From Vicinamibacterales bacterium (GTDB lineage: Bacteria; Acidobacteriota; Vicinamibacteria; Vicinamibacterales; UBA2999), in NCBI GenBank assembly GCA_035575715.1, contig DATLXN010000011.1:6354-70353 (forward strand): 64,000 nucleotides of DNA. The letters run 5' to 3'. Positions 6,620 to 61,116 of this stretch are shown here, piece after piece; the stretch's first letter is position 1; each line of letters begins with the position of its first letter. The notes below the pieces were generated by a model that was not told the DNA's origin, searched no databases, and saw nothing but the letters and a program-made list of their open reading frames with translations. The position numbers were made by a program, and so were the translations under genes.

Positions 6620-7503
6620 AGCTGCGGTTAGGTATCCCCAAGGGTTCGCTCGAAGCATCGACGGTGCAGCTGTTCCAGCGCGCCGGCTTCAACATCCTGG
6701 TCAGCTCGCGTTCGTATTTTCCGTCGATCGATGATCCGGAAATCGAATGCATGCTGATTCGCGCGCAGGAGATGGCACGCTATGTCGCGGACGGCGTCCT
6801 CGATGCCGGCCTGACCGGCATGGACTGGATCGCCGAGCATCAACTCGGGCACCCCGAACAGTCACCGCTGGTCTCGATCGCCGATCTGATTTACGCCAAG
6901 CAGAGTTTCGGCAAGGTTCGCTGGGTATTGGCGGCCCCGGACGACTCGCCCTTTCAAACCGCCGAGGACCTCAACGGCAAGCGGATTGCGACCGAATTGG
7001 TGCGCGTCACCAAAAATTACTTTACGCAAAAGGGTCTCAACGTCGATGTCGAGTTCTCGTGGGGCGCGACCGAGGTCAAACCGCCGGTGCTCGCTGATGC
7101 CATCGTCGAAGCGACCGAAACCGGTTCGACGCTGCGCGCCAATCGGCTGCGCATTCTCGATACGGTGACCGAATCCAACACCCAGTTAATCGCCAACGAC
7201 AGCGCTCTGCGAGATGCCTGGAAGCGAACCAAGCTGGAAAACATCGCGCTGCTGCTCAAGGCGGCGATCGAGGCACAAGGCCGCGTCGGGCTGATGCTCA
7301 ACGTCAAACAAACCGATCTGCTGTCGATCCTGGCGCTGCTGCCGGCGTTGCAGCGTCCGACAATTTCGTCACTCAGCGATCCGGACTGGGTGGCGGTCAA
7401 TACGATTATCGAAGAACGCACCGTGCGCGATTTGATCCCGAAGATCAAGGCGGCCGGCGGCCAGGGCATCGTCGAATACCCACTGAATAAGATCGTGCTG
7501 TGA
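6616..7503 (+). CDS. hisG: ATP phosphoribosyltransferase, long form with C-terminal regulatory domain
   Basis: The start was moved to ATG 6616 ([13 protein letters not shown]), which overlaps the hisI stop. The track ORF begins at 6568, inside hisI. A HisG_C-like tail is present (GRVGLMLNV...[10 protein letters not shown]). Confidence 0.9.
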
Positions 7504-13035: not shown

Positions 13036-14451
13036 ATGCTCCTCCGCATCTGTCTCGGCCTGGTCGTCGCGTTGAGCACCACGCTCATCGCGCAGCGGCC
13101 GCAGTTGGCCGATGCGGTCAAGCCGTATCTCCGCACCAACGAACCTGTTGTCGCGCTGACCAACGTCCGGGTGATTGACGGTAGCGGTGGCGCAGCGCGC
13201 GAGCGGCAGACGGTGGTGATCAGGGACGGCATCATTGCGACGGTTGGCGATGCCGCGGTCACGACCGTGCCGGCCGGCGCCGAAGTGATCGACCTCACCG
13301 GCCGCAGCGTCATCCCGGGCATGGTCATGCTGCATGAGCACCTCTACTACCCGACCGGCCCGGGCGTCTACGGTCAACTGGGCGAGAGCTTCAGTCGCCT
13401 TTATCTCGCCGGCGGCGTGACCACGATGCGCACCGGCGGGAATATGAATGGCTACATGGACCTCAATCTGAAACGCGCGATTGAGAGCGGACAGAAAGCC
13501 GGACCAGCAATCGACGCGACCGCCCCGTACGTGAATGGGCCGAATACGTTTCAGCAGATGACCAGCGTCACCACTGCCGACCAAGCCCGCCAGCACGTGG
13601 CGTATTGGGCCGGCCAGGGGGCGACATCATTCAAGGCCTACATGCAAATCTCGCGCGTCGCGCTTGGCGCGGCGATCGAAGAAGCGCACCAGCGCGGCAT
13701 GAAGGTGACCGGGCACCTGTGCTCGGTGACCTATAGCGAAGCGGCCGATCTCGGCATCGATAATCTCGAACACAGTTTTCTCGCGGCAACTGATTTCGTC
13801 AGCGACAAGCAGCCGGACACCTGCCCCGGACAAGGACGGGGCCAGCAAACCGTCAATGCGGTCGACGAGAATGGCGCGCCGTTCAAAGCACTCGTCGCCA
13901 AACTAATTGCCAAAGGCGTCGCGCTGACCTCCACCCTCACCGTGTTTGAAACCTTCACACCGGGCCGTCCGCTGCCCCCCGGCTTGGAAGTGCTCACGCC
14001 GCAGCTCAAACAGCAGTTCGAGCAGACCCATGCACGCACCGCGCAGAACAAGGAGTCGATTTACCGGACCCTGCTGCCTAAAGCGATGGCGCTGGAACGC
14101 GCATTTGTGCGCGCCGGCGGGACTCTGGTCGCCGGCACGGACCCAACTGGCTCTGGCGGCGTCATACCTGGATATGCCAATCAGCGGCAGCTCGAGCTGC
14201 TGGTCGATGCCGGGTTTACGCCGCTCGAGGCGATTCGCATCGGCACCATGAACGGCGCGCGCTACCTCGGCCGCGAGAAGGCGGTCGGAACCATTGAGGT
14301 CGGCAAACAGGCCGACCTCGTCGTGCTGAACGGTGATCCGTCGACGAGGATTGCGGATGTGCGGCAGGTCGAGATCGTCTTTCGGCAGGGTGTCGGCTAC
14401 GACCCGGCCAAGCTGATCGCTTCGGTGTCTGGTCGGGTTGGGCTGTTCTAG
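13036..14451 (+). CDS. secreted amidohydrolase-superfamily metallohydrolase
   Basis: Signal peptide present. HxH metal motif (MLHEHLYY). C-terminal GTDP and [10 protein letters not shown] motifs typical of the amidohydrolase family. Confidence 0.7.
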
Positions 14452-14517
14452 GGGACAGGTCCTTCAGGACCTGTCCCCGCACCTGTCCCCTCAGGACCTG
14501 TCCCCTCAGGTCCCCTC
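14451..14517. repeat. perfect 12-bp-stem palindrome followed by a tandem 15-nt direct repeat (three copies of ACCTGTCCCC)
   Basis: GGGGACAGGTCC-TTCA-GGACCTGTCCCC spans 14451-14478. ACCTGTCCCCTCAGG occurs at 14481-14495 and 14496-14510, followed by TCCCCTC. The element starts at the last base of the amidohydrolase stop codon. Confidence 0.85.
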
Positions 14518-14530
14518 AACGAGGTTTGTC

Positions 14531-29878: not shown

Positions 29879-32800
29879 ATGACCACCCCCCCACCCAACC
29901 TCGTCACCCGACTCCTGCTCGACTGGAGTGCTGGAGATAAAGAGGCCTTCGACCAGCTGGTCCCGCTGGTTCATGAGGAACTGCGGCGATTGGCCGAAGG
30001 CTACATGCGTCGCGAGCCCGCCGGGCACACGTTGCAACCGACGGCGCTCGTGAACGAGGCCTACCTTCGCCTGGTCGACCAGCGCCGGATGCGGTGGCAG
30101 GATCGCGCCCACTTCTTTGCCATTTCGGCGCAGATGATGCGTCGCATTCTTGTCGACCACGCACGCAAGCGCCGCTACGCCGAACGCGGTGGCCCCGACG
30201 CGATCAAGATGAACCTCGACGAAGCCCTCGACTTCTCTCAGGGACGCGCCGCTCACGTCGTCGCACTGGACAATGCGCTCAGCCAGCTCGCCAAGGTCGA
30301 CCCGCAACATGGCAAGGTCGTCGAGCTGCGATTTTTTGGTGGATTGACGATCGAGGAGACCGCTGACGTGCTCGGATTGTCGCGCGACAGGGTCAAGCGC
30401 GAGTGGGCGACTGCGAAAGAGTGGCTAACGCGGGAGCTCACCGCGCAGACGGCGGAAGGTAGCGAACCGGTCAGTGCTCAGAAGACCGGGCCTTACGAGA
30501 TCCTCGAGCAGCTGGGCGCCGGTGGAATGGGCGAGGTTTTCCTCGCGCATGACAGTCGCCTCGGGCGCAAGGTCGCGCTCAAGCTGCTCCCCTCCTACTT
30601 CATCAACGACGGGGAGCGGTTGCAGCGCTTTCAGCAGGAGGCCAGTGCCGCGTCGCGGCTGAATCATCCGAACATCGTCACCATCTACGAAGTCGGGCAG
30701 CTCGATTCCGGTCCCTACATTGCGACTGAGTACATCGACGGCGTGACGTTGCGCGCATGGATGGAACAGAAGCACCTGAGCGTCAGCGATGCGATTGACG
30801 CCGCGCTGCAAGTCGCCTCCGCTCTGGCGGCCGCGCATGCCGCGGGCATTGTCCATCGAGACATCAAGCCCGAGAACATCATGGTGCGGCGCGATGGCTT
30901 GTTCAAGGTGGTCGACTTCGGACTCGCCAAGCTGACCGAACCGGGAGTTGCACCGATTTCGCCGGACCTGGCGGCGACCAAGCGGCTGCTGTTCAAGACC
31001 GATCCCGGCACGGTGATGGGCACGGTGATCTACATGTCGCCGGAACAGGCACGTGGCTGGGTCGTCGACGCGCGCACCGACATCTGGAGCCTTGGGGTCG
31101 TGCTCTACGAAATGGTCGCCGGTCAGCCACCGTTTGACGGCGGCAGTGTCGCGGACATCCTGGTGTCGATTCTCGACCGCGGCGCGCCGCCACTGACCCA
31201 TCCTGGTGGCGTCCCACCTGAACTCGCGCGCGTCGTTGCGAAGGCGCTGCACAAGGATCAGGAGCAGCGCTACGCGCAGGTCGACGATCTGATGCGGGAT
31301 CTGCGCGTGCTTCAACAGGATCTCAGCTTCGCCGAGCAGTTGCGGCGCAGCACCCAGGGTGAATCGATCGCCCCGGAGACGCCCGCGATCGAGACGGCCG
31401 CGCCAGAGGCGTCGGGGCGTCGCGCGCATAACTTCTCCACGCAGCGGAGCACCCTCATCGGTCGCGACACCGAACTGGCCCTGCTCAACACGCGGCTGCG
31501 GGACGACGAGGTGCGTCTGGTGACCCTGACCGGGCCCGGCGGTACCGGCAAGACGCGGTTGGCGTTGCAGGCGGCGGGCGATGTGGTCGACGCGTTCGAT
31601 CACGGCGTCGTCTTCGTGGCGCTGGCTGCCATCAGTAATCACGAGGTCGTCGCGTCGGCGATTGCTCAAGCGCTGGGGGTTCAGGAGACCCGCGAGCGAA
31701 CGTTCGCGGCTGGGCTGATCAACTATCTGCGCGATAAAACGATGCTGCTGGTGTTGGACAACTTCGAGCAGGTGGCGCCAGCCTCGCTTCTGGTCGCGGA
31801 CCTATTGGCGTCCTGTCCACAGGTCAAAGTGCTGGTCACCAGCCGCGCCCCGTTGCAGCTGTCCGACGAGCGGGAATTTCAGGTGCCGCCGCTGGCCCTG
31901 CGACAAGCAGAAGTCCTGTTCGTGCAGCGGGTCATGGCGGCTAAGCCGCAGTTCGCGTTGACCACCGACAGCGCGCGCGTGATCAGTGAAATCTGCGCAA
32001 GGCTCGACGGGCTCCCGCTGGCGTTGGAACTGGCGGCGACGCGTATCAAGCTGCTGTCGCTGGAAGAAATCTCGGCGCGGCTTAACCAGCCGCTGCAGCT
32101 GCTGCAGGGCGGAGCCAAAGATTTGCCGCCGCGCCAGCAAACCATGCGCGCCACGATTGCATGGAGCTATGACTTGCTCAGCGACGACGCACAAATGTTG
32201 TGGCGCCGGCTGTCGGTGTTCGTCGGCGGCTTCACGCTGGCCTCGGCAGAGGCGGTGTGCAGCGACATCAACGGCGTGACCATTGCGGTGCTCGATGCGC
32301 TCGAGTCGTTAGTGGACGAGAGCCTGGTCCAGCGCAAGGACATCGGCGACGGCACCTATCGCTTCCTGATGTTGGAGACCATTCGCGAATACGGACTGGA
32401 GCGCCTCGCGGCGAGCGGCGAGACCGCCCAATTGCGACGGCAGCATGCGATGTTCTGCGTTGACCTCGCGGAGGACGCAGAGCGGCATCTGCGGAGCGTG
32501 AGGCGCGATCCGTGGCTGGCGAGGCTCGAAAGCGAACATCACAATATCGGCGCGGCGCTCCGCTGGACGCTCGACAACGATGAGACCGAGATGGGCCTGC
32601 GGCTGGTCGGTGCTCTGCGCTGGTTCTGGTATCACCGCGGGCATATTGGTGAGGGATATCACTGGGCCACCGCGTTGCTCGCACGACAAGACGCGACGGC
32701 GTCTGTCAAGGCCAGAGCCAACGCCTTATACGCCGCCGGAAGTCTGGCGTTCTATTACAGCGATCCCACTGCCGCCGGCGCGTTACTCAGGGAAAGTGCA

Positions 32801-33367
32801 GTGCTGTGGCGAGCACTCGGCGACCGTCAATCGCTCGCCTATGCGCTGACCTTCACCAGCCTGCCGATTCACCTCGGCGAACGGGATTTCCCTGAGGCGC
32901 GCACCACTGCTGAAGAGGCGGTAGCGCTGTTCAGGACTCTCGATGATCCGTGGGGGCTGGCGTTGTCGCTCAATTACGCCGGCATCATCCTCTGGACCGA
33001 ACCGGGGGCCGAACAACAGGCGACGGCGATGCTCAAGGAGAGCGTGTCGTTGTTTCGTGGCCTTGGCGATGGCTGGGGTGTCGGCGGGGCCGCTCTTTAT
33101 CTCGGCGGCATGCACCAGGACCGCGGCGAAGTTCAGGAAGCGCGGGCGTTGTACGAAGAGTTCGTTGCAGTGATCCGTGAGTCGAAGGATCTGTGGCGGC
33201 TGGCGTCCGGCTTGGAGATCCTTGCGTCGTTACTCCGCGACGAAGGAGAAGACGCACGCGCCGACGCCTTGACTGAGGAGAGCACCACACTGCAACGCAA
33301 GCTGGGCCGATCGCTCAGTCTCAAGAAGGCGTGGGATCAGATGAAACTCGCTCGGCAACGCAGCTGA
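29879..33367 (+). CDS. multidomain fusion: ECF-type sigma factor, Ser/Thr protein kinase, STAND/AAA NTPase, TPR repeats
   Basis: Sigma part, aa 1 to about 190: LLLDWSAGDKEAFDQLVPLVHEELRRLA and RFFGGLTIEETADVLGLSRDRVKREW. Kinase part: GAGGMGEV, VALK, HRDIKPEN, DFGLAK, SPEQ. NTPase part: Walker A GPGGTGKT (31532-31555) and Walker B LLVLDN. The C-terminal 450 aa or so are TPR-like. One continuous 1162-codon ORF. Confidence 0.8.
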   Translation: MTTPPPNLVTRLLLDWSAGDKEAFDQLVPLVHEELRRLAEGYMRREPAGHTLQPTALVNEAYLRLVDQRRMRWQDRAHFFAISAQMMRRILVDHARKRRYAERGGPDAIKMNLDEALDFSQGRAAHVVALDNALSQLAKVDPQHGKVVELRFFGGLTIEETADVLGLSRDRVKREWATAKEWLTRELTAQTAEGSEPVSAQKTGPYEILEQLGAGGMGEVFLAHDSRLGRKVALKLLPSYFINDGERLQRFQQEASAASRLNHPNIVTIYEVGQLDSGPYIATEYIDGVTLRAWMEQKHLSVSDAIDAALQVASALAAAHAAGIVHRDIKPENIMVRRDGLFKVVDFGLAKLTEPGVAPISPDLAATKRLLFKTDPGTVMGTVIYMSPEQARGWVVDARTDIWSLGVVLYEMVAGQPPFDGGSVADILVSILDRGAPPLTHPGGVPPELARVVAKALHKDQEQRYAQVDDLMRDLRVLQQDLSFAEQLRRSTQGESIAPETPAIETAAPEASGRRAHNFSTQRSTLIGRDTELALLNTRLRDDEVRLVTLTGPGGTGKTRLALQAAGDVVDAFDHGVVFVALAAISNHEVVASAIAQALGVQETRERTFAAGLINYLRDKTMLLVLDNFEQVAPASLLVADLLASCPQVKVLVTSRAPLQLSDEREFQVPPLALRQAEVLFVQRVMAAKPQFALTTDSARVISEICARLDGLPLALELAATRIKLLSLEEISARLNQPLQLLQGGAKDLPPRQQTMRATIAWSYDLLSDDAQMLWRRLSVFVGGFTLASAEAVCSDINGVTIAVLDALESLVDESLVQRKDIGDGTYRFLMLETIREYGLERLAASGETAQLRRQHAMFCVDLAEDAERHLRSVRRDPWLARLESEHHNIGAALRWTLDNDETEMGLRLVGALRWFWYHRGHIGEGYHWATALLARQDATASVKARANALYAAGSLAFYYSDPTAAGALLRESAVLWRALGDRQSLAYALTFTSLPIHLGERDFPEARTTAEEAVALFRTLDDPWGLALSLNYAGIILWTEPGAEQQATAMLKESVSLFRGLGDGWGVGGAALYLGGMHQDRGEVQEARALYEEFVAVIRESKDLWRLASGLEILASLLRDEGEDARADALTEESTTLQRKLGRSLSLKKAWDQMKLARQRS

Positions 33368-34607: not shown

Positions 34608-34640
34608 CAGTTACTCACCTTACACCGACGATCCACAGAA

Positions 34641-34677
34641 GCACGGAAGCACGAAATGACTTTCCGTGTTTCCGTGC
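34641..34677. repeat. hairpin built from CACGGAA/TTCCGTG words
   Basis: The left arm GCACGGAAGCACGAAA spans 34641-34656 and the loop is TGAC. The right arm TTTCCGTGTTTCCGTGC spans 34661-34677. TTCCGTG occurs at 34662 and 34670. The hairpin lies between the two cytochrome/monooxygenase genes. Confidence 0.8.
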
Positions 34678-38297: not shown

Positions 38298-38359
38298 AAC
38301 ACGAAGTTCCCGAACAGCACGAAGTGAATGATTTCTTCGTCTACTTCGTGTTCTTCGTG
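38298..38359. repeat. inverted cluster of CACGAAG / CTTCGTG words between convergent genes
   Basis: CACGAAG occurs at 38300 and 38318. CTTCGTC occurs at 38335 and CTTCGTG at 38344 and 38353 (9-nt spacing). The arms can pair as an imperfect hairpin. Confidence 0.75.
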
Positions 38360-38368
38360 TCGTTTCCC

Positions 38369-38393
38369 GACGACCGACCACCGACGACCGACC
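38369..38393. repeat. 3.5 tandem heptamers GACGACC GACCACC GACGACC GACC
   Basis: Read directly from the sequence. Same family and orientation as the 30-unit array at 39937-40146. It runs into the stop codon (38393-38395) of the minus-strand hydrolase gene. Confidence 0.85.
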
Positions 38394-39916
38394 TATTGTC
38401 GCGTCGTCGGATTCTGTTTTTTCTTCGTCGCGAAAAACTCAAACATCCCGGCCAGGTTCGGCACGACCACGTCGCTGTGGCCGCCGCCGGGGACTTCGAT
38501 GTAGACGTGATCGACCTCCTGCGTCTTCATCTCGGCCACCATGCCGCGGGAGCCGCCGACCGGGACCGTCGGGTCGTTGTCGCCGTGCACGACAAACTGC
38601 GGGATGTGCTTCATTCGCACCACGCTGGTCGGTGCGCCGGTGCCGGCAAAGGTTCCAAGCGCCGCCCAGATATCCGGGTACTTCGCAGCGAGGAACCAGG
38701 TGCCGATCGCGCCCATTGAGTGGCCCATCAGGAAGATGCGTGAGTCGTCGACTTTGAAATCACGGCGCATCCGCGCCAGCACCTGCATCACATCCTGTTC
38801 GCTGAATTCCTGCTTGCGCTTCGACGCGGCGTCGCTGCCATAGCTGAAGCCGTAGAAGCCGTCCACGCGGTAGCCGAGTGGGGACACCGCGATGAAGCCG
38901 TGCTTCTCCGCGAGTTCAGGCACGCGCTTGGCGTAGTTGTCCATCATGCCATCTTCGTTCCCCCCCAAACCATGGAGCGCGACAACCAGTGGCGCCGGTT
39001 TGGCCGGGTTGTAGGTCGACGGGACGTAGACGCGGTAGGGCATGATCTCGCCGGCCACTTCGAGCAGATAGTGGCGTTCGAAGTCGCCGGTGCGGTTGGC
39101 AAACGGATCCTTGCCGCCGTTCGCGGCGGCGGCAATGGTCTCGGCGGCAGCCAACTCTTTGGCCAGGTCGAACTGACTCAACTCCATCGTGCCGCGGTTC
39201 ACTTTGCGCAGGTAGTCGGCCGGGTAGCGGATGTCGGCGCGCACATTGTCGGCAGCGGCAAGCGCCGCCTTCTCCAACGCGGCCAGCCGCGACTCGAGCC
39301 CTTTCTGCACAGCGATACGCAGGCTCGCGGTGCCCAGCTTGGCGGCCCCATCGCTCACGTCGACATCGAGCATGTAAGCGCCGTCGGGTACGGCCGACAG
39401 ATCGAGTTCCATGTGCAGCGGCATGTCGCGCAGATCACGACTGACGTCGCTGAAGTCCGCGATTGGCTTCAGGTCACCGGCGCCGGCCGGCGCCGCCAGC
39501 AGTGGCCGCACGGTTGCGCGTGCCGTCAGCGGGCTGGCCAACTGCATGACCGGCGCAAAGATCTGCTCGAGCCGGACGTGATACGGCAGTGATGAGTCGA
39601 CGAACTGCCGCTCGCTGCGCAGGATCAGTGACTGATCGAAGTCATCGGCGTCGGTCCACGGCCGCTTGTTGAGCAGGGCCATCCCCTTGGCGATCTGGCG
39701 CCGCATCTCCGCCGTCCGGCCAAGACGCATCGCCTCGGCGATCTCTTTGTCGATCGCATCGATGGCGATCTTCAATTCGCCGTCAGGCTTGACGCGATTC
39801 TTGAGTGAGTTGTAGCCAACGCGCGCGAGTGCGGCGTTGGGCGGCGCCTGGGCAAAGGCTGGCGCCGATAAGGCGAGGGCAACCGCTGCGATGGTGACAA
39901 GACGGGCAATGCGCAT
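38393..39916 (-). CDS. secreted alpha/beta hydrolase (esterase/peptidase type) with an N-terminal domain of about 270 aa and unknown function
   Basis: Signal peptide MRIARLVTIAAVALALSAPAFAQ. C-terminal motifs VVALHGLGGNED, GHSMGAIG (nucleophile elbow) and HGDNDPTVP. SD GGGAG lies on the minus strand at 39921-39925. Confidence 0.7.
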   Translation of the reverse strand: MRIARLVTIAAVALALSAPAFAQAPPNAALARVGYNSLKNRVKPDGELKIAIDAIDKEIAEAMRLGRTAEMRRQIAKGMALLNKRPWTDADDFDQSLILRSERQFVDSSLPYHVRLEQIFAPVMQLASPLTARATVRPLLAAPAGAGDLKPIADFSDVSRDLRDMPLHMELDLSAVPDGAYMLDVDVSDGAAKLGTASLRIAVQKGLESRLAALEKAALAAADNVRADIRYPADYLRKVNRGTMELSQFDLAKELAAAETIAAAANGGKDPFANRTGDFERHYLLEVAGEIMPYRVYVPSTYNPAKPAPLVVALHGLGGNEDGMMDNYAKRVPELAEKHGFIAVSPLGYRVDGFYGFSYGSDAASKRKQEFSEQDVMQVLARMRRDFKVDDSRIFLMGHSMGAIGTWFLAAKYPDIWAALGTFAGTGAPTSVVRMKHIPQFVVHGDNDPTVPVGGSRGMVAEMKTQEVDHVYIEVPGGGHSDVVVPNLAGMFEFFATKKKQNPTTRQ

Positions 39917-39936
39917 GTGACTCCCTCTGATCGATT

Positions 39937-40146
39937 GGCGATTGGCGATTGACGACCGACGACTGACGACTGACGACTGACGACTGACGACTGACGACTG
40001 GCGATTGACGACCGACGACTGGCGATTGACGACCGACGACTGACGACCGACGACTGACGACTGACGACTGGCGACTGGCGACTGGCGACTGGCGATTGGC
40101 GATTGGCGATTGGCGATTGGCGATTGGCGATTGGCGACCGACGACC
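39937..40146. repeat. 30-unit heptanucleotide tandem array, consensus GRCGAYY
   Basis: Counted by hand in one unbroken register. Units are GGCGATT x10, GACGACT x11, GACGACC x5, GGCGACT x3 and GGCGACC x1, arranged in homogeneous blocks. The array fills 210 of the 254 nt between divergent start codons. Confidence 0.95.
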
Positions 40147-40170
40147 GGCAGTGTGATAGGTTCCCGCCAA

Positions 40171-40677
40171 ATGATCAACAAAGCGCTGACTGTCGGGGTA
40201 TTGGCTTTGGTCACGGCTGTTGCCACGGGGGCCCAGGGTCCCGCCGCACCATCGGCGACCACCGAGACGCAACGCAAATTCGTCGGCCATTGGCGGCTAT
40301 TGAAGTTTGAAAATTTCGACGAGAAAGGCGTGGCGCGGCTGGCCGGCTACGACGGTGGACGGATCATCTATGACGACGCCGGCAACATGTCGGCGCAGCT
40401 GATGCGATCCGAACGCAAACTGATGGCTCAGCTCTCCACAGAAGCTGAACGCGCCGCTGCATACGCCACCTACACCGCGTACTACGGGAAGTACACCATC
40501 GACAGCAGCGCAGCAAGGGTCACGCATCACGTCGAAGGTTCGGTCAATCCGAACTGGGTCAAGACCGACCTGGTGCGCTATTACGCCTTCTCCAACAGCG
40601 ACAACACGATGACGTTGTCGATCAAGAACGCCGAGGGTCGGATCACCGGCACGCTCACGTGGGAGCGTTTGCGGTAG
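40171..40677 (+). CDS. lipocalin-like domain protein, secreted
   Basis: The start was set to ATG 40171 (MINKALTVGVLALVTAVATGAQG). The track ORF start at 40096 lies inside the heptamer array. FVGHWRLLKFENFDEKG is typical of lipocalin-like domains. Confidence 0.6.
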   Translation: MINKALTVGVLALVTAVATGAQGPAAPSATTETQRKFVGHWRLLKFENFDEKGVARLAGYDGGRIIYDDAGNMSAQLMRSERKLMAQLSTEAERAAAYATYTAYYGKYTIDSSAARVTHHVEGSVNPNWVKTDLVRYYAFSNSDNTMTLSIKNAEGRITGTLTWERLR

Positions 40678-48338: not shown

Positions 48339-48386
48339 GCAGGCAGGCGGGTAGGCAGGTAAGCGGGTAGGCAGGTAAGCAGGTAA
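48339..48386. repeat. six tandem octamers, consensus GCRGGTAR
   Basis: GCAGGCAG GCGGGTAG GCAGGTAA GCGGGTAG GCAGGTAA GCAGGTAA, starting 4 nt after the receptor stop codon. Confidence 0.9.
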
Positions 48387-48393
48387 CTAAGAT

Positions 48394-48422
48394 GGGCGGG
48401 TGCGCTTCGTGCGCGCCCGCCC
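48394..48422 (+). terminator. GC-rich stem-loop without U-tract (possible terminator of the receptor gene)
   Basis: GGGCGGG-T-GCGC-TTCGT-GCGC-G-CCCGCCC. It covers the GTG at 48400, which argues against that start codon. Confidence 0.4.
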
Positions 48423-48435
48423 ATTCGTGTCTTCA

Positions 48436-50028
48436 ATGAAATGTTGTCTTTCGTCTTTCGTCTTTCTCCTTTCCGTCACTGCGTCGTCCGCGCAGCACGC
48501 CTCGCATCGTCTTGCGCCCATTCCACTCGAAATCGTTGAACGGCCCGTGACGATGCGGGCCGGCGTGCCGCGTGCGCATGACGATACGGGCTCGCCATCG
48601 AAAGAGGCGCAGGCGTTCTACGACCAGGGGCTCGCCTATCTCCATTCGTTTGTCTGGATCGAGGCCGCGCGATCGTTCAACGCGGCGCTGCGCAGCGATC
48701 CGACACTCGCGATGGCGCACCTTGGCTTGAGCATCGCGTTTACGGAACTGAATCGACCGGCCGGTGCGCAGAAGGCGTTTGACGCAGCTGCCGCACACGC
48801 ACCGCAGGACGCGCATGCGCGACGCCACATCGACGTGCGGCGGCTGCAGATGTTTGCCGAGGGCGCACCCGGTGACGCGGCCAAGCTGGCGGCGTATCGC
48901 CAGGCGCTTGACGCCGCGATCACGGCGTTTCCACAGGACGCCGAGTTTGTATTGCTGCGCGGCATGGCCGAATCCGGCGACGCCGCCGATCGCGGCCAGG
49001 GCAGCCTTGCCGCCTCGGTCAGGTATTACGAACGCGCGCTCGCGCTGGAGCCGGGATATTTCGCGGCTCACCACTTTCTCGCGCATGCACACGAGAACGC
49101 GGGACACCAAGCCGCCGCGCTGCCACACGCCGCGACGTTCGCCAAACAGGCCGCGGAGATCCCGCACGCGCGCCACATGCACGGCCACAGCCTGCGTCGC
49201 GTCGGCCGCGTCCACGACGCGATTGTTGAATTCGAAGCCGCCGATCGCCTGCACCGGCAGTATGCGCAACGGGAGAAGATCGCACCGGAGTACGACTGGC
49301 ACTTCGAGCACAACCTCGGCTTGCTCGCCACCTCGCTCCACTACACCGGTCAAATCAAGCGCGCCGAGACATTATTGAAAACGGCATTCGCGCTGCCGAC
49401 CAACCTGCTGGTTCAGGCCTACAACAAACGCGAGTGGCCGATGTTCCTGCGCGCACGCGGACGCTATACCGAGGCAGAAGCCGCGGCCAAGGTGCTCATC
49501 GGCCACGCCAACCCCGTGGTCCAGGCGACGGGCCACATCGAGGCCGGCTTTGCGCTGCTGGCGCAGCAGCGCTGGGGCGAGGCGGCCAACGCCTCGAATG
49601 CGGCGCTGCGGCTGTTGCGGACGGCGCCGGGCGGCGCCGTCGCGGCCACTGCGCTGCAGGCGTTACAGGGAGAATTCAACCTGCGCACCGCGGAACGCGC
49701 CAAAGGCCGCGCCATGCTCGAAGAGGCGGCGAAGAAGCTGCGTGCCGCACCAGGGCCCGACGCCTGGAGCCAGGCACTTTTCAGTCTGGAGCAGATGGCT
49801 CGCAGCGCGCGCACCGTCGGTGATTGGGAGCTCGCGGGGAAGTTGGCGGGGCACATGGCTGAGCACGACCCGGCCTACGGCGGGACGCACTACGCACTTG
49901 CACTTGTGGCGGAGCACGGCGAAGATGCCGCTACGGCCAAAGCCGAGCTGGCGCTGGCCCTGAAGTCTTGGGCGAAAGCTGATCCCGATTTACCTGAACT
50001 CGTCGAGATTCGAAAGAAATTGAAATGA
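48436..50028 (+). CDS. TPR-repeat protein with predicted signal peptide
   Basis: The start was set to ATG 48436 (MKCCLSSFVFLLSVTASSAQ), downstream of the hairpin. Multiple TPR-like helices follow (AQAFYDQGLAYLHSF..., YYERALALEPGYFAAHHFLAHA). If the signal peptide is not real, the start could be the ATG near 48553. Confidence 0.6.
   Translation: MKCCLSSFVFLLSVTASSAQHASHRLAPIPLEIVERPVTMRAGVPRAHDDTGSPSKEAQAFYDQGLAYLHSFVWIEAARSFNAALRSDPTLAMAHLGLSIAFTELNRPAGAQKAFDAAAAHAPQDAHARRHIDVRRLQMFAEGAPGDAAKLAAYRQALDAAITAFPQDAEFVLLRGMAESGDAADRGQGSLAASVRYYERALALEPGYFAAHHFLAHAHENAGHQAAALPHAATFAKQAAEIPHARHMHGHSLRRVGRVHDAIVEFEAADRLHRQYAQREKIAPEYDWHFEHNLGLLATSLHYTGQIKRAETLLKTAFALPTNLLVQAYNKREWPMFLRARGRYTEAEAAAKVLIGHANPVVQATGHIEAGFALLAQQRWGEAANASNAALRLLRTAPGGAVAATALQALQGEFNLRTAERAKGRAMLEEAAKKLRAAPGPDAWSQALFSLEQMARSARTVGDWELAGKLAGHMAEHDPAYGGTHYALALVAEHGEDAATAKAELALALKSWAKADPDLPELVEIRKKLK
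48446..48473. repeat. four tandem heptamers GTCTTTC GTCTTTC GTCTTTC TCCTTTC inside the 5' end of the TPR ORF
   Basis: Read directly from the sequence. Same word as the pyrimidine arm at 61068-61116. Confidence 0.85.
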
Positions 50029-50042
50029 TCAATGGAGCTGTC

Positions 50043-50411
50043 ATGACCAAATTCACAGTGCTGCTCGTGGCACTCGTCCTGTTCGCTGCCCCCGTCTCGG
50101 CGCAGAAGTCCGACCTCACCGGCCAATGGGCTGTCGACGTGCAGACTGATGCCGGGAGCGGGTCGCCTGTCTTCGTGCTGAAACAGGTCGACGACAAACT
50201 CACCGGCACTTACAAAGGTACCCTCGGCGAGGCCAATGTCACCGGCACCGTCTCCGGCAAGACGTTCAAGATTACCTTCAATATCGATGCGCAAGGCACC
50301 GCGCTGGCAGTCGTCTACGACGGCGAGATCGACAGCAGCGACGCGATCAAAGGCCGTGTCGATCTGGGCGGGCTCGGCAGCGGCACCTTTACCGGGAAGC
50401 GCAGCAAATGA
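50043..50411 (+). CDS. small secreted hypothetical protein
   Basis: The start was set to ATG 50043 (MTKFTVLLVALVLFAAPVSAQ). The 122-aa protein is beta-rich. It is tightly packed between the TPR and dehydrogenase genes, and its stop overlaps the next ATG. Confidence 0.55.
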   Translation: MTKFTVLLVALVLFAAPVSAQKSDLTGQWAVDVQTDAGSGSPVFVLKQVDDKLTGTYKGTLGEANVTGTVSGKTFKITFNIDAQGTALAVVYDGEIDSSDAIKGRVDLGGLGSGTFTGKRSK

Positions 50412-52306
50412 GCGCGCGCAGATTCGGGCTCGTCGCCCTGATCGCCACTACGTTGGTCTTCGCGATTGTCGCGCGGACGGCGCTGACCGCCGAACAAGGC
50501 AAGCCAGTCGGCACCGCAGGTCTCTCCTTGCCGGCCGGCGAACTGGGGGGCGCGCTCTATACCGAGCGGTGCGCTGCCTGTCATGACGCGCCCGACACGT
50601 CGCGCGCCCCGTCACGGCAGAACCTCAGCGCACGAACCGTCGCGCAGATCGTCGCCGCCCTCTCTCCGGGCGGCGTCATGGCGGTCCACGGCGACAAAAT
50701 GTCAGCGCCAGAGAAGCACGCGGTCGCGACTTTCTTGTCTGCCGCGAGCGCCGCGGCTCCCGGTGCCGCTGCGGCCTCTGCGGATCCCGCGGTGGGCAGC
50801 TGCCCGGCCAATCCACCGATCCCGGACCTCGCATCGCTGCCGGCCTGGAACGGCTGGGGCAACGACGCGGCCAATACCCGCTTCCAGCACGCCCAGGCGG
50901 CAGGCCTCAGCGCGGGTGATGTCCCTCAGCTGACCCTGAAGTGGGCGTTTGCCTTCGCCGGATCAACGGCGGCATCCGGCCAGCCGACCATTGCCGCGGG
51001 GCGCGTCTTCGTCGGCAACAGCAACGGCATGGTCTACTCGCTCGACGCCAAGACCGGCTGCACCTACTGGACCTTCAAAGCGGATGGTGGCGTGCGTGTG
51101 TCGCCAAGCATCGCGCGCGTTGCTATCGGCGGCACGCAGCGGGCCATCGCGATGTTCGGTGACGTCCGCGCCACCGCCTACGCCGTCGATGCCCAGACCG
51201 GCACGATGGTGTGGAAGTTGAAGGTCGACGACCACGCCTTCGCGCGCATCACCGGCGCACCGTCATACGCCAATGGACGTCTTTACGTGCCCGTGTCTTC
51301 GGTCGAAGAAGTCTCGGGAGGACGTCCGTCCTACCAGTGCTGCACTTTCCGCGGCAGCGTCGTCGCCCTCGACGCCGCAACCGGCAAGCAGCTCTGGAAG
51401 ACCTACATGATTCCTGAGGCGCCGAAGATCGTCGGCAAGAATTCCGCTGGTACATCGCTGTGGAAAGATGCCGGCGTTGCGATCTGGACGTCGCCGACGC
51501 TCGACGTCGCGAAGAACATGATTTACGTCGCGACCGGCAACGCCTACACCAGTCCCGCAGCGCCGACCAGCGATGCGGTGGTCGCCCTCGATATGGCCAG
51601 CGGTGCGATTCAATGGGTTCAGCAAGCGACGCCGAATGATGTCTACGTGATCGGCTGCAAGCCGGGTGTCGAGAACTGCCCCGATGACGTCGGACCCGAT
51701 TTCGACTTTGGCAACTCGCCCATCCTGCGGGCGTTGCCCGGTGGCCGGCGCGTACTGACGCTCGGACAAAAGTCGGGCATGGTCTACGGCATGGATCCCG
51801 ACAACAAGGGAAAAGTCTTGTGGCAGATGCGCGCCGGCAAAGGCGGCGAACTCGGCGGCATCGAATGGGGCTCGGCCGCAGATGAACAGAACGTCTACAT
51901 TCCAGTCTCCGACGTTCTGCGTCCCGCAGGCGAAGCGGGCGGCCTCTACGCCTATCGATTAGCCACCGGCGAACAGGTCTGGCACACGCCAGCGCCGGCC
52001 CTGGCGTGCACCGGCGGGCAGGGATGCACCGGGGCCCAGTCTGCGCCGGTCAGTGTCATGCCCGGGGTCGTGTTCTCAGGCTCCGTTGACGGCAACCTCC
52101 GTGCGTATGCGACCGCCGACGGCAAGATCATCTGGACGTTCAATACGATGCGGCCCTTCGAAACGGTCAACGGCGTCAAAGGCCAGGGCGGCTCGATCGA
52201 CGCCGCCGGTCCGGTCATCGCCGGAGGGATGGTGTTTACCAACTCAGGCTACGGCCAGTGGCGCGGCAAGCCCGGGAACGTCCTGCTGGCGTTTGGTTTG
52301 CCGTAA
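50408..52306 (+). CDS. quinohemoprotein-type dehydrogenase: N-terminal heme-c domain plus PQQ-like beta-propeller (polyvinyl-alcohol-dehydrogenase-like architecture)
   Basis: CAACH heme motif near the N-terminus. WNGWGNDAANTRFQ is present, with repeated propeller blades (VFVGNSNGMVYSLDAKTG, VVALDAATGKQLW, VVALDMASGAIQW, LYAYRLATGEQVW, LRAYATADGKIIW). Confidence 0.65.
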   Translation: MSARRFGLVALIATTLVFAIVARTALTAEQGKPVGTAGLSLPAGELGGALYTERCAACHDAPDTSRAPSRQNLSARTVAQIVAALSPGGVMAVHGDKMSAPEKHAVATFLSAASAAAPGAAAASADPAVGSCPANPPIPDLASLPAWNGWGNDAANTRFQHAQAAGLSAGDVPQLTLKWAFAFAGSTAASGQPTIAAGRVFVGNSNGMVYSLDAKTGCTYWTFKADGGVRVSPSIARVAIGGTQRAIAMFGDVRATAYAVDAQTGTMVWKLKVDDHAFARITGAPSYANGRLYVPVSSVEEVSGGRPSYQCCTFRGSVVALDAATGKQLWKTYMIPEAPKIVGKNSAGTSLWKDAGVAIWTSPTLDVAKNMIYVATGNAYTSPAAPTSDAVVALDMASGAIQWVQQATPNDVYVIGCKPGVENCPDDVGPDFDFGNSPILRALPGGRRVLTLGQKSGMVYGMDPDNKGKVLWQMRAGKGGELGGIEWGSAADEQNVYIPVSDVLRPAGEAGGLYAYRLATGEQVWHTPAPALACTGGQGCTGAQSAPVSVMPGVVFSGSVDGNLRAYATADGKIIWTFNTMRPFETVNGVKGQGGSIDAAGPVIAGGMVFTNSGYGQWRGKPGNVLLAFGLP

Positions 52307-52318
52307 CGAGACGGACAA

Positions 52319-52377
52319 GCCGCAGAGGCACAGAGACGCAGAGAATGTTTCTCTCTGTGTCTCTGAGTCTCTGTGGC
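52319..52377 (+). terminator. long, nearly perfect hairpin (about 26 bp) built from CAGAG/CTCTG words; no U-tract
   Basis: Hand pairing of 52319-52344 with 52352-52377 gives one mismatch and three G-U pairs. The loop is ATGTTTC. The hairpin starts 13 nt after the dehydrogenase stop codon. Confidence 0.55.
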
Positions 52378-52388
52378 CGCGCTCGTCC

Positions 52389-52424
52389 CTACCCGCCCAC
52401 CTGCCTACCTGCCCACCTGCCTGC
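52389..52424. repeat. four tandem octamers CTACCCGC CCACCTGC CTACCTGC CCACCTGC (reverse complement of the GCRGGTRR family)
   Basis: Read directly from the sequence. CTACCCGC is the exact reverse complement of the GCGGGTAG units at 48347 and 48363. Confidence 0.9.
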
Positions 52425-61029: not shown

Positions 61030-61116
61030 GAAAGAAGAAAGAAGAAAGAAGAAAGACGGAAATAACGCTTTCGTCTTTCGTCTTTCGTCTTCCGTCTTCC
61101 GTCTTCCGTCTTCCGT
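61030..61116. repeat. purine-heptamer array (GAAAGAA x3, GAAAGAC, GGAAATA) facing a pyrimidine-heptamer array (CTTTCGT x3, CTTCCGT x4); foldable as a long imperfect hairpin
   Basis: Units counted by hand. GAAAGAC (61051-61057) pairs perfectly with GTCTTTC (61073-61079). Neighbouring units pair at 5-6 of 7 positions. Confidence 0.9.

Follow-up and report, generated by a model that had tools for sequence, protein, structure and literature searches.

The window, which is the whole stretch of 64,000 nt that was analysed, contains a long array of heptanucleotide repeats between two divergently oriented genes, one for a secreted esterase and the other for a lipocalin-like protein. The features of this locus are given below.

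38367-38393, no strand assigned: short array of about 4 CCGACGA/CCGACCA units, directly after the esterase stop codon
38393-39916, minus strand: secreted alpha/beta-hydrolase, a PHB-depolymerase-family esterase of 507 aa, intact and with the invariant GHSMG motif
39921-39925, minus strand: Shine-Dalgarno-like GGGAG, 4 nt before the esterase ATG; a comparable leader is present in the related locus L007 (AAGGAGTC)
39930-39936, no strand assigned: degenerate terminal unit ATCGATT at the esterase-proximal edge of the array; the TRF call reaches to 39927
39937-40146, no strand assigned: 30-unit GRCGAYY array, from 7-mer cutting and TRF
40154-40162, plus strand: extended -10-like element TGATAGGTT, 8 nt upstream of the lipocalin ATG, a leaderless-type spacing
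40171-40677, plus strand: Lipocalin_5-domain protein of 168 aa with a signal peptide; the recorded gene call starts at 40171

Cutting of positions 39937-40146 into 7-mers yielded exactly 30 in-register GRCGAYY units (210 bp), comprising GACGACT (11 copies), GGCGATT (10), GACGACC (5), GGCGACT (3) and GGCGACC (1). Variation among the units is confined to positions 2, 6 and 7 of the heptamer, and homogeneous blocks are formed by 6 x GACGACT at 39958-39999 and 6 x GGCGATT at 40091-40132. TRF delimited the repeat as 39927-40145 with a period of 7, 31.1 copies, 87% matches and a score of 219, whereas 30 dinucleotide-shuffled versions of the window gave 61 at best. From start codon to start codon (esterase ATG at 39916 on the minus strand, lipocalin ATG at 40171) the distance is 254 nt, and the unique sequence left beside the array amounts to 20 nt on the esterase side and 24 nt on the lipocalin side. 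The heptamers, unit counts and blocks described in the first-pass annotation were reproduced to the base by 7-mer cutting and TRF, and the same intergenic gap with its two unique flanks was obtained again. There are 42 two-unit matches (4.5 expected), 15 of the 29 neighbouring pairs consist of identical units (7.5 expected; permutation P = 0.0013) and a 21-nt higher-order motif, GGCGATT-GACGACC-GACGACT(n), occurs three times. We infer from the block clustering and the 21-nt motif a signature of local duplication by slippage or unequal exchange, with which the earlier reading of the blocks as products of slippage or unequal exchange is compatible. With a head-to-tail unit in the range of 5-11 nt and a length beyond what composition predicts, the array is of the LSSR5-11 type. 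Neither strand of it contains a TA dinucleotide or a TAnnnT hexamer.

A protein that NCBI lists under 'MAG TPA: Vicinamibacterales bacterium' matches the esterase at 100% identity. Both flanking genes, coding for identical proteins, were also recovered in an independent Logan assembly of run SRR7741809, where they lie on two contigs that each break off within the array, at the block of six GACGACT units and at that of six GGCGATT units. Because these contigs stop inside the array, both of its ends and their unit order are independently confirmed and its interior is not. The break is expected from an assembler with k=31, since thirteen 31-mers of the array region are non-unique. All k-mers of at least 42 nt are unique and the blocks are below assembler k, so that an assembler with k of at least 55 traverses the array unambiguously. 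No sign of collapse was seen in the k-mer uniqueness and no block is near a typical assembler k. The join across the array is also backed by the gene order conserved in relatives, DUF4159 - DUF3089 - Lipocalin_5 followed by the divergent esterase. One sample is the only recorded source of the two flanking proteins, and the closest other esterase is 73% identical.

For comparison, 80 loci around esterase homologues were taken from GTDB species representatives by an alignment-based search. Most of them are titled as Acidobacteriota or Vicinamibacterales MAGs, a few have other bin labels, and nanopore contigs of megabase size are frequent among them. The divergent lipocalin/esterase pair is conserved in L003, L004, L007, L008 and L012, with an intergenic distance of 90-117 nt in L003, L004, L007 and L008 as against 254 nt in the window. 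No array is present between the two genes in L003, L007 and L008. In L004-L006, which are identical in sequence and come from three samples, an 8-mer array (CAATCACC x6.5) is located at the same place, between two -10 boxes. This array is also one of an inverted octamer pair, ATTGGGTG x7.6 at L004:8751-8811 and CAATCACC x6.5 at L004:9936-9987 (also in L005 and L006), which flanks the lipocalin gene together with a gene of the 23S_rRNA_IVP family and is identical in the three metagenome samples. The core of CAATCACC is similar to the CAATCGC of the window array read in the esterase sense, and judged by this resemblance the two could share a conserved functional motif instead of having arisen by independent slippage. 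A common origin of the two arrays was considered; L008, a closer relative, is without an array. About 9 of about 80 orthologous esterase upstream regions contain a 7-, 8-, 14- or 16-nt array, with unrelated units. Since this fraction resembles the background per intergenic region, itself roughly estimated from non-coding array counts with genes assumed to be about 1 kb apart, the site upstream of the esterase does not seem specially favoured.

The lipocalin box TGATAGGTT has orthologous counterparts in L004 (TGATAGTTT) and L007 (TGATACCTT). It is among only five TGnTAnnnT sites in the 128 kb formed by both strands of the window, and it is the sole TAnnnT within 39880-40520. Assignment of the -10 elements relies on consensus and conservation, and promoter rules for Acidobacteriota are poorly known; a strict sigma-70 promoter scan of 39700-40400 gave 0 sites. 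The predicted core of the lipocalin promoter, an extended -10, lies outside the array and only its putative -35 and upstream region consist of repeat DNA. Because TGATAGGTT is outside the array, the array does not appear to be placed so as to switch the lipocalin promoter.

The situation is different for the esterase. An extended -10, TGnTAG(G/C)AT, is conserved upstream of the gene in at least 12 orthologues (L003/L009, L004, L007, L008, L010, L012, L015, L018, L025, L031, L033 and L074), either 5-11 nt from the start, which is a leaderless type of spacing, or at about 30 nt with a Shine-Dalgarno leader. TGnTAGGAT has zero occurrences in the 64-kb window and there is no TAnnnT hexamer on the esterase strand within 39880-40520. 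The array starts at the distance where L007 and L012 have their esterase -10, and apart from GGGAG no expression signal can be recognised in the 20-nt unique segment. The -10 conserved in the orthologues is thus absent where the array begins, and the gene is intact. An intact and conserved ORF argues for continued expression, and therefore an unrecognised esterase promoter may lie in or beyond the array. The first-pass annotation had placed both promoters within or beyond the array. For the lipocalin gene this does not hold, as the putative -10 lies in the 24-nt unique segment and is conserved in orthologues, whereas the proposal stands for the esterase, whose TGnTAGGAT is absent with no TAnnnT to replace it on that strand. 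A GGAAC-N16-CGTC match resembling an ECF-sigma site was noticed by eye at the lipocalin-side edge, facing the esterase, and is uninformative because CGTC recurs every 7 nt. The short array after the esterase stop codon has the unit family and orientation of the 30-unit array, and is the one further short site of this family in the 64 kb. Because of this match the esterase gene is bracketed by direct repeats of one heptamer type.

In the esterase sense, RNA of the intergenic region folds worse than 200 of 200 shuffles (z = +3.75), and RNA of the opposite strand has an average fold (z = 0.31). Formation of hairpins, cruciforms or quadruplexes by the array is ruled out by these folds together with the composition of the units. 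No Rfam family was found in the whole window by a gathering scan, and no tRNA. Two antisense ORFs that run across the array (39772-40290 and 39783-40277) are regarded as spurious, since the repeat read on its minus strand is free of stop codons, and the coding reading was discarded.

The 30-unit array is not the only one of its kind. Many other 7-8-nt tandem arrays, nearly all of them intergenic, are present in the window, and its period-7 arrays number 10 compared with 2.2 expected. A census with a TRF score cut-off of at least 40, and expectations from shuffles, was made on 77 non-redundant related loci of 1.37 Mb, which were obtained from the 80 esterase loci and synteny-context loci after removal of duplicates. 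It gave 77 period-7 arrays against 0.6 expected and 22 period-8 arrays against 0.8 expected. About 65% of these period-7/8 arrays are located in the roughly 17% of the sequence that is outside crude ORF calls. The units are diverse, with 50 distinct canonical heptamers among the 77 period-7 arrays. About one fifth of the arrays in relatives have an inverted partner of the same unit within 150 nt, with which they form hairpins, and for 21-23% of the period-7/8 arrays another array of that unit occurs elsewhere in the locus (up to 21 kb) in spite of the high overall diversity. The longest period-7 array in the 1.37 Mb has 8.4 copies, so that the window array is about four times longer. The wider TRF survey suggested in the first-pass annotation, extended here to the relatives, therefore finds the period-7 excess in both sets and the array not to be a one-off. 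The statement in the same annotation that such arrays are not known in Acidobacteria is at odds with their approximately 130-fold over-representation in Vicinamibacterales-type genomes, which makes the window array an extreme member of a common population and not a singular device.

Other repeats of the window show several arrangements. Octamer arrays at 48339-48385 (GCAGGTAG-type, x6) and 52388-52424 (CCTACCTG-type, x4.4), separated by 4.0 kb, are mutually reverse-complementary (85% over 33 nt). Between them lies a block of three ORFs (48400-52306), the last of which codes for a PQQ beta-propeller protein; the pair could serve in long-range pairing of mRNA ends or as a recombination substrate. 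Terminator-like hairpins between short tandem repeats and their own inverted copies are present at 52321-52375, 34634-34676, 38300-38360, 61030-61116 and 14450-14518, the last with a 3' arm that is repeated three times. Examples of such hairpins are CGCAGAGA x3 with TCTCTGTG x3 (94% complementary) and GAAAGAA x4 with CTTTCGT/CTTCCGT x7. GTCTTTC, a rotation of CTTTCGT, forms arrays at 48446-48466 and 61068-61090, 12.6 kb apart and in the same orientation. The sharing of one heptamer by two sites of the window, along with the 21-23% of same-unit partners in relatives, suggests genome-specific unit families. Apart from the repeats, an unusual fusion is encoded by a 1162-aa ORF at 29879-33367 (plus strand), which has Pfam hits to ECF-sigma (Sigma70_ECF/r4), Ser/Thr kinase, NB-ARC/AAA_16 and HTH_77 domains.

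Arrays in the clade also differ between close relatives. L059 and L069 are 87.5% identical overall; their orthologous arrays differ in unit and in length, and the flanks of these arrays are 96-98% identical. In L209 and L210, which represent one species in two samples, a stretch of 236 nt is identical except for one GGTGC unit, which is a direct example of slippage polymorphism in the clade. The region in question (L209:4230 and L210:4224) is a mixed GGTGC/GGTGCACA array located between the genes for DUF4159 and DUF3089. Where contigs from separate samples encode an identical esterase, most short arrays are invariant.

To look beyond these relatives, JGI metagenome contigs were scanned for four consecutive GRCGAYY units, and at least 120 loci with a GC content of 25-74% were obtained. 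Arrays among the matches listed reach 22.7 copies in L183, 28.3 in L181 and 25.6-49 in L200, and no orthologue of the window locus is among the matches listed. Neither the unit nor the length of the window array is therefore unique, as GRCGAYY arrays occur at these loci and some of them are equally long. The L181 array, 28 copies of AGTCGTC at 7299-7496 of a metagenome contig with 45% GC, is embedded in related degenerate heptamers (AGTTGTC, AGTCAAC and others) that extend over more than 300 nt, and resembles the cyanobacterial STRR; the organism has a much lower GC content. In the searchable literature on Vicinamibacterales and Acidobacteriota no paper describing this class of heptamer arrays was found, and searches for the literal repeat sequences and for tandem repeats in Vicinamibacter returned nothing relevant. 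The clade-level abundance of the arrays in Vicinamibacterales thus appears to be undescribed.

The STRR of cyanobacteria were reportedly described by Mazel et al. in 1990 as short tandemly repeated repetitive heptanucleotides. The first-pass annotation had named them as the nearest analogue and the comparison is apt at the level of the class, as the window array is likewise heptanucleotide, tandem and intergenic. Similar GGGGAYT/GGGAATC heptamers are present in Nostoc and Xanthomonas (PMC4692102). The arrays of both groups are tandem and intergenic, occur at many loci per genome with frequent inverted pairs, vary in length and sequence between close relatives and reach up to 26 units. However, one or a few units dominate in the STRR, Nostoc and Xanthomonas genomes, whereas units are highly diverse between loci in the Vicinamibacterales relatives. 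The G-rich units of Nostoc and Xanthomonas can form quadruplexes, in contrast to GACGACT, GGCGATT and GACGACC of the window, which have no G3 or C3 run and no structure. The hosts differ as well, the STRR being found in (heterocystous) cyanobacteria and the window array in a Vicinamibacterales MAG whose relatives are Acidobacteriota MAGs. Among long SSRs, heptamers are the most abundant class in many non-pathogens with large genomes, and polymerase slippage has been proposed for them (Mrazek et al. 2007, as given in PMC4679880 and PMC4692102). The window array agrees with the LSSR5-11 in its 7-nt unit, beyond-chance length, intergenic location and free-living, large-genome non-pathogen host, but its 30 units are at the extreme end.

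Our preferred interpretation, to which we assign a probability of roughly 0.6, is that the array is a genuine hyper-expanded heptanucleotide microsatellite, LSSR5-11/STRR-like, which has grown by slippage in a shared promoter region and has an asymmetric local effect. It would have expanded by replication slippage and unequal exchange in the short region of back-to-back promoters between the esterase and lipocalin-like genes, and would represent the long tail of the clade-wide intergenic 7-8-nt arrays that arise, change their unit and vanish fast. Against this reading, the four-fold excess of the 30 copies over the longest period-7 array in relatives could mean selection for length, not drift. 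The expansion would have pushed apart the two formerly back-to-back promoters, and the array would now occupy the place of the esterase -10. Changes in copy number should affect the lipocalin gene little because only the -35 and upstream region is repeat DNA. Because the conserved TGnTAGGAT is lost, transcription of the esterase would be weak or non-canonical, starting inside the array or running across it, or would be lacking altogether. Any tuning would probably consist of a graded, length-dependent expression of the esterase, which is possible by analogy with hmw1A, and not of an ON/OFF switch of helical phase. Such a switch, in which copy-number changes would alter promoter phasing, had been proposed in the first-pass annotation and is without anatomical support, because the array is not placed between a -35 and a -10, the recognisable promoter is outside the array and phase is restored every three units (21 bp, two turns).

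The (TAAA)n repeat of nadA is a repeat system of the contingency type. The window array might similarly be a contingency locus, where gain and loss of units would stochastically switch or tune the esterase, the lipocalin-like protein or both as a form of bet-hedging, an explanation that we regard as rather unlikely. A long, near-perfect array with homogeneous blocks is in the most slippage-prone state; it lies in the control region of two genes with signal-peptide products and is far longer than any period-7 array in the relatives, and unit-level polymorphism exists in the clade, as in L209/L210. Precedent comes from the phase-variable hmw1A/hmw2A of Haemophilus influenzae with (ATCTTTC)n, whose length grades expression (PMC12721329, PMC8262952), as shown by the 7-nt SSR upstream of hmw1A (PMC12721329). 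Like the window array, this SSR has a 7-nt unit and tens of copies, and it immediately precedes a gene whose product is exported. However, transcription of the hmw repeats starts at mapped promoters that lie upstream of them, and pairing of the repeats with a G-rich arm gives an RNase III hairpin (PMC12721329, PMC8262952), whereas the TAnnnT scan and the folds revealed no esterase promoter upstream of the window array and no such hairpin partner. The lipocalin -10, the only recognisable promoter, is outside the array, which does not lie between a -35 and a -10. Moreover, arrays at the orthologous locus are no commoner than at other intergenic regions, and the two 6-8-copy arrays of the orthologous locus do not differ among three samples.

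A broader and quite unlikely proposal is that the 7-8-nt arrays of Vicinamibacterales, which are lineage-specific and number in the hundreds, constitute a selected and fast-evolving cis-regulatory layer, in which inverted pairs would act as terminators or mRNA-end pairings and hyper-expanded arrays as length-tunable rheostats that replace promoter elements. If this proposal were true, the array would have taken over the control of the secreted esterase, and contingency-locus-like behaviour would exist in a free-living soil bacterium.

It seems very unlikely that the array acts in RNA, where it would form an extended, unstructured 5' leader on the esterase transcript, recruit single-strand-binding proteins (of the cold-shock-domain type, one per heptamer) or a ribonuclease and control the translation or stability of the esterase mRNA. 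The unusually unstructured esterase-sense transcript (z = +3.75), the Shine-Dalgarno sequence directly after the array and the related units in the same sense after the esterase stop codon are consistent with such a role. A similar post-transcriptional role has been suggested for the TAACTGA direct repeats of marine Beggiatoaceae, which are intergenic heptamers close to start codons, like the window array (PMC4679880). However, Beggiatoaceae have one fixed unit genome-wide with 2-6 copies per set, in contrast to the idiosyncratic unit with 30 copies in the window. Upstream of the array, nothing resembling a promoter is seen on the esterase strand, which lacks TAnnnT as far as 40520, and the 50 canonical heptamers among 77 arrays argue against one dedicated binding protein.

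That the length or order of the array is an artefact of short-read MAG assembly is highly improbable, for although the source is a MAG and the k=31 assembly of SRR7741809 breaks at both sides of the array, independent contigs carry both ends with the same unit order, k-mers of at least 42 nt are all unique with 42-nt blocks far below assembler k and no sign of collapse or loops, synteny in relatives supports the join, and comparable arrays are common, including in nanopore-based MAG contigs of relatives.

By these findings the Vicinamibacterales, abundant and almost uncultured soil Acidobacteriota, join the bacteria that have intergenic heptamer and octamer microsatellites. Such arrays break short-read assemblies, as seen from the Logan contigs that end in the 30-unit array, and they could serve as strain markers. 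They can also overwrite promoter elements. With the esterase -10 absent and the esterase gene intact, this locus is a good natural test case for repeat-tuned expression outside the host-adapted pathogens.
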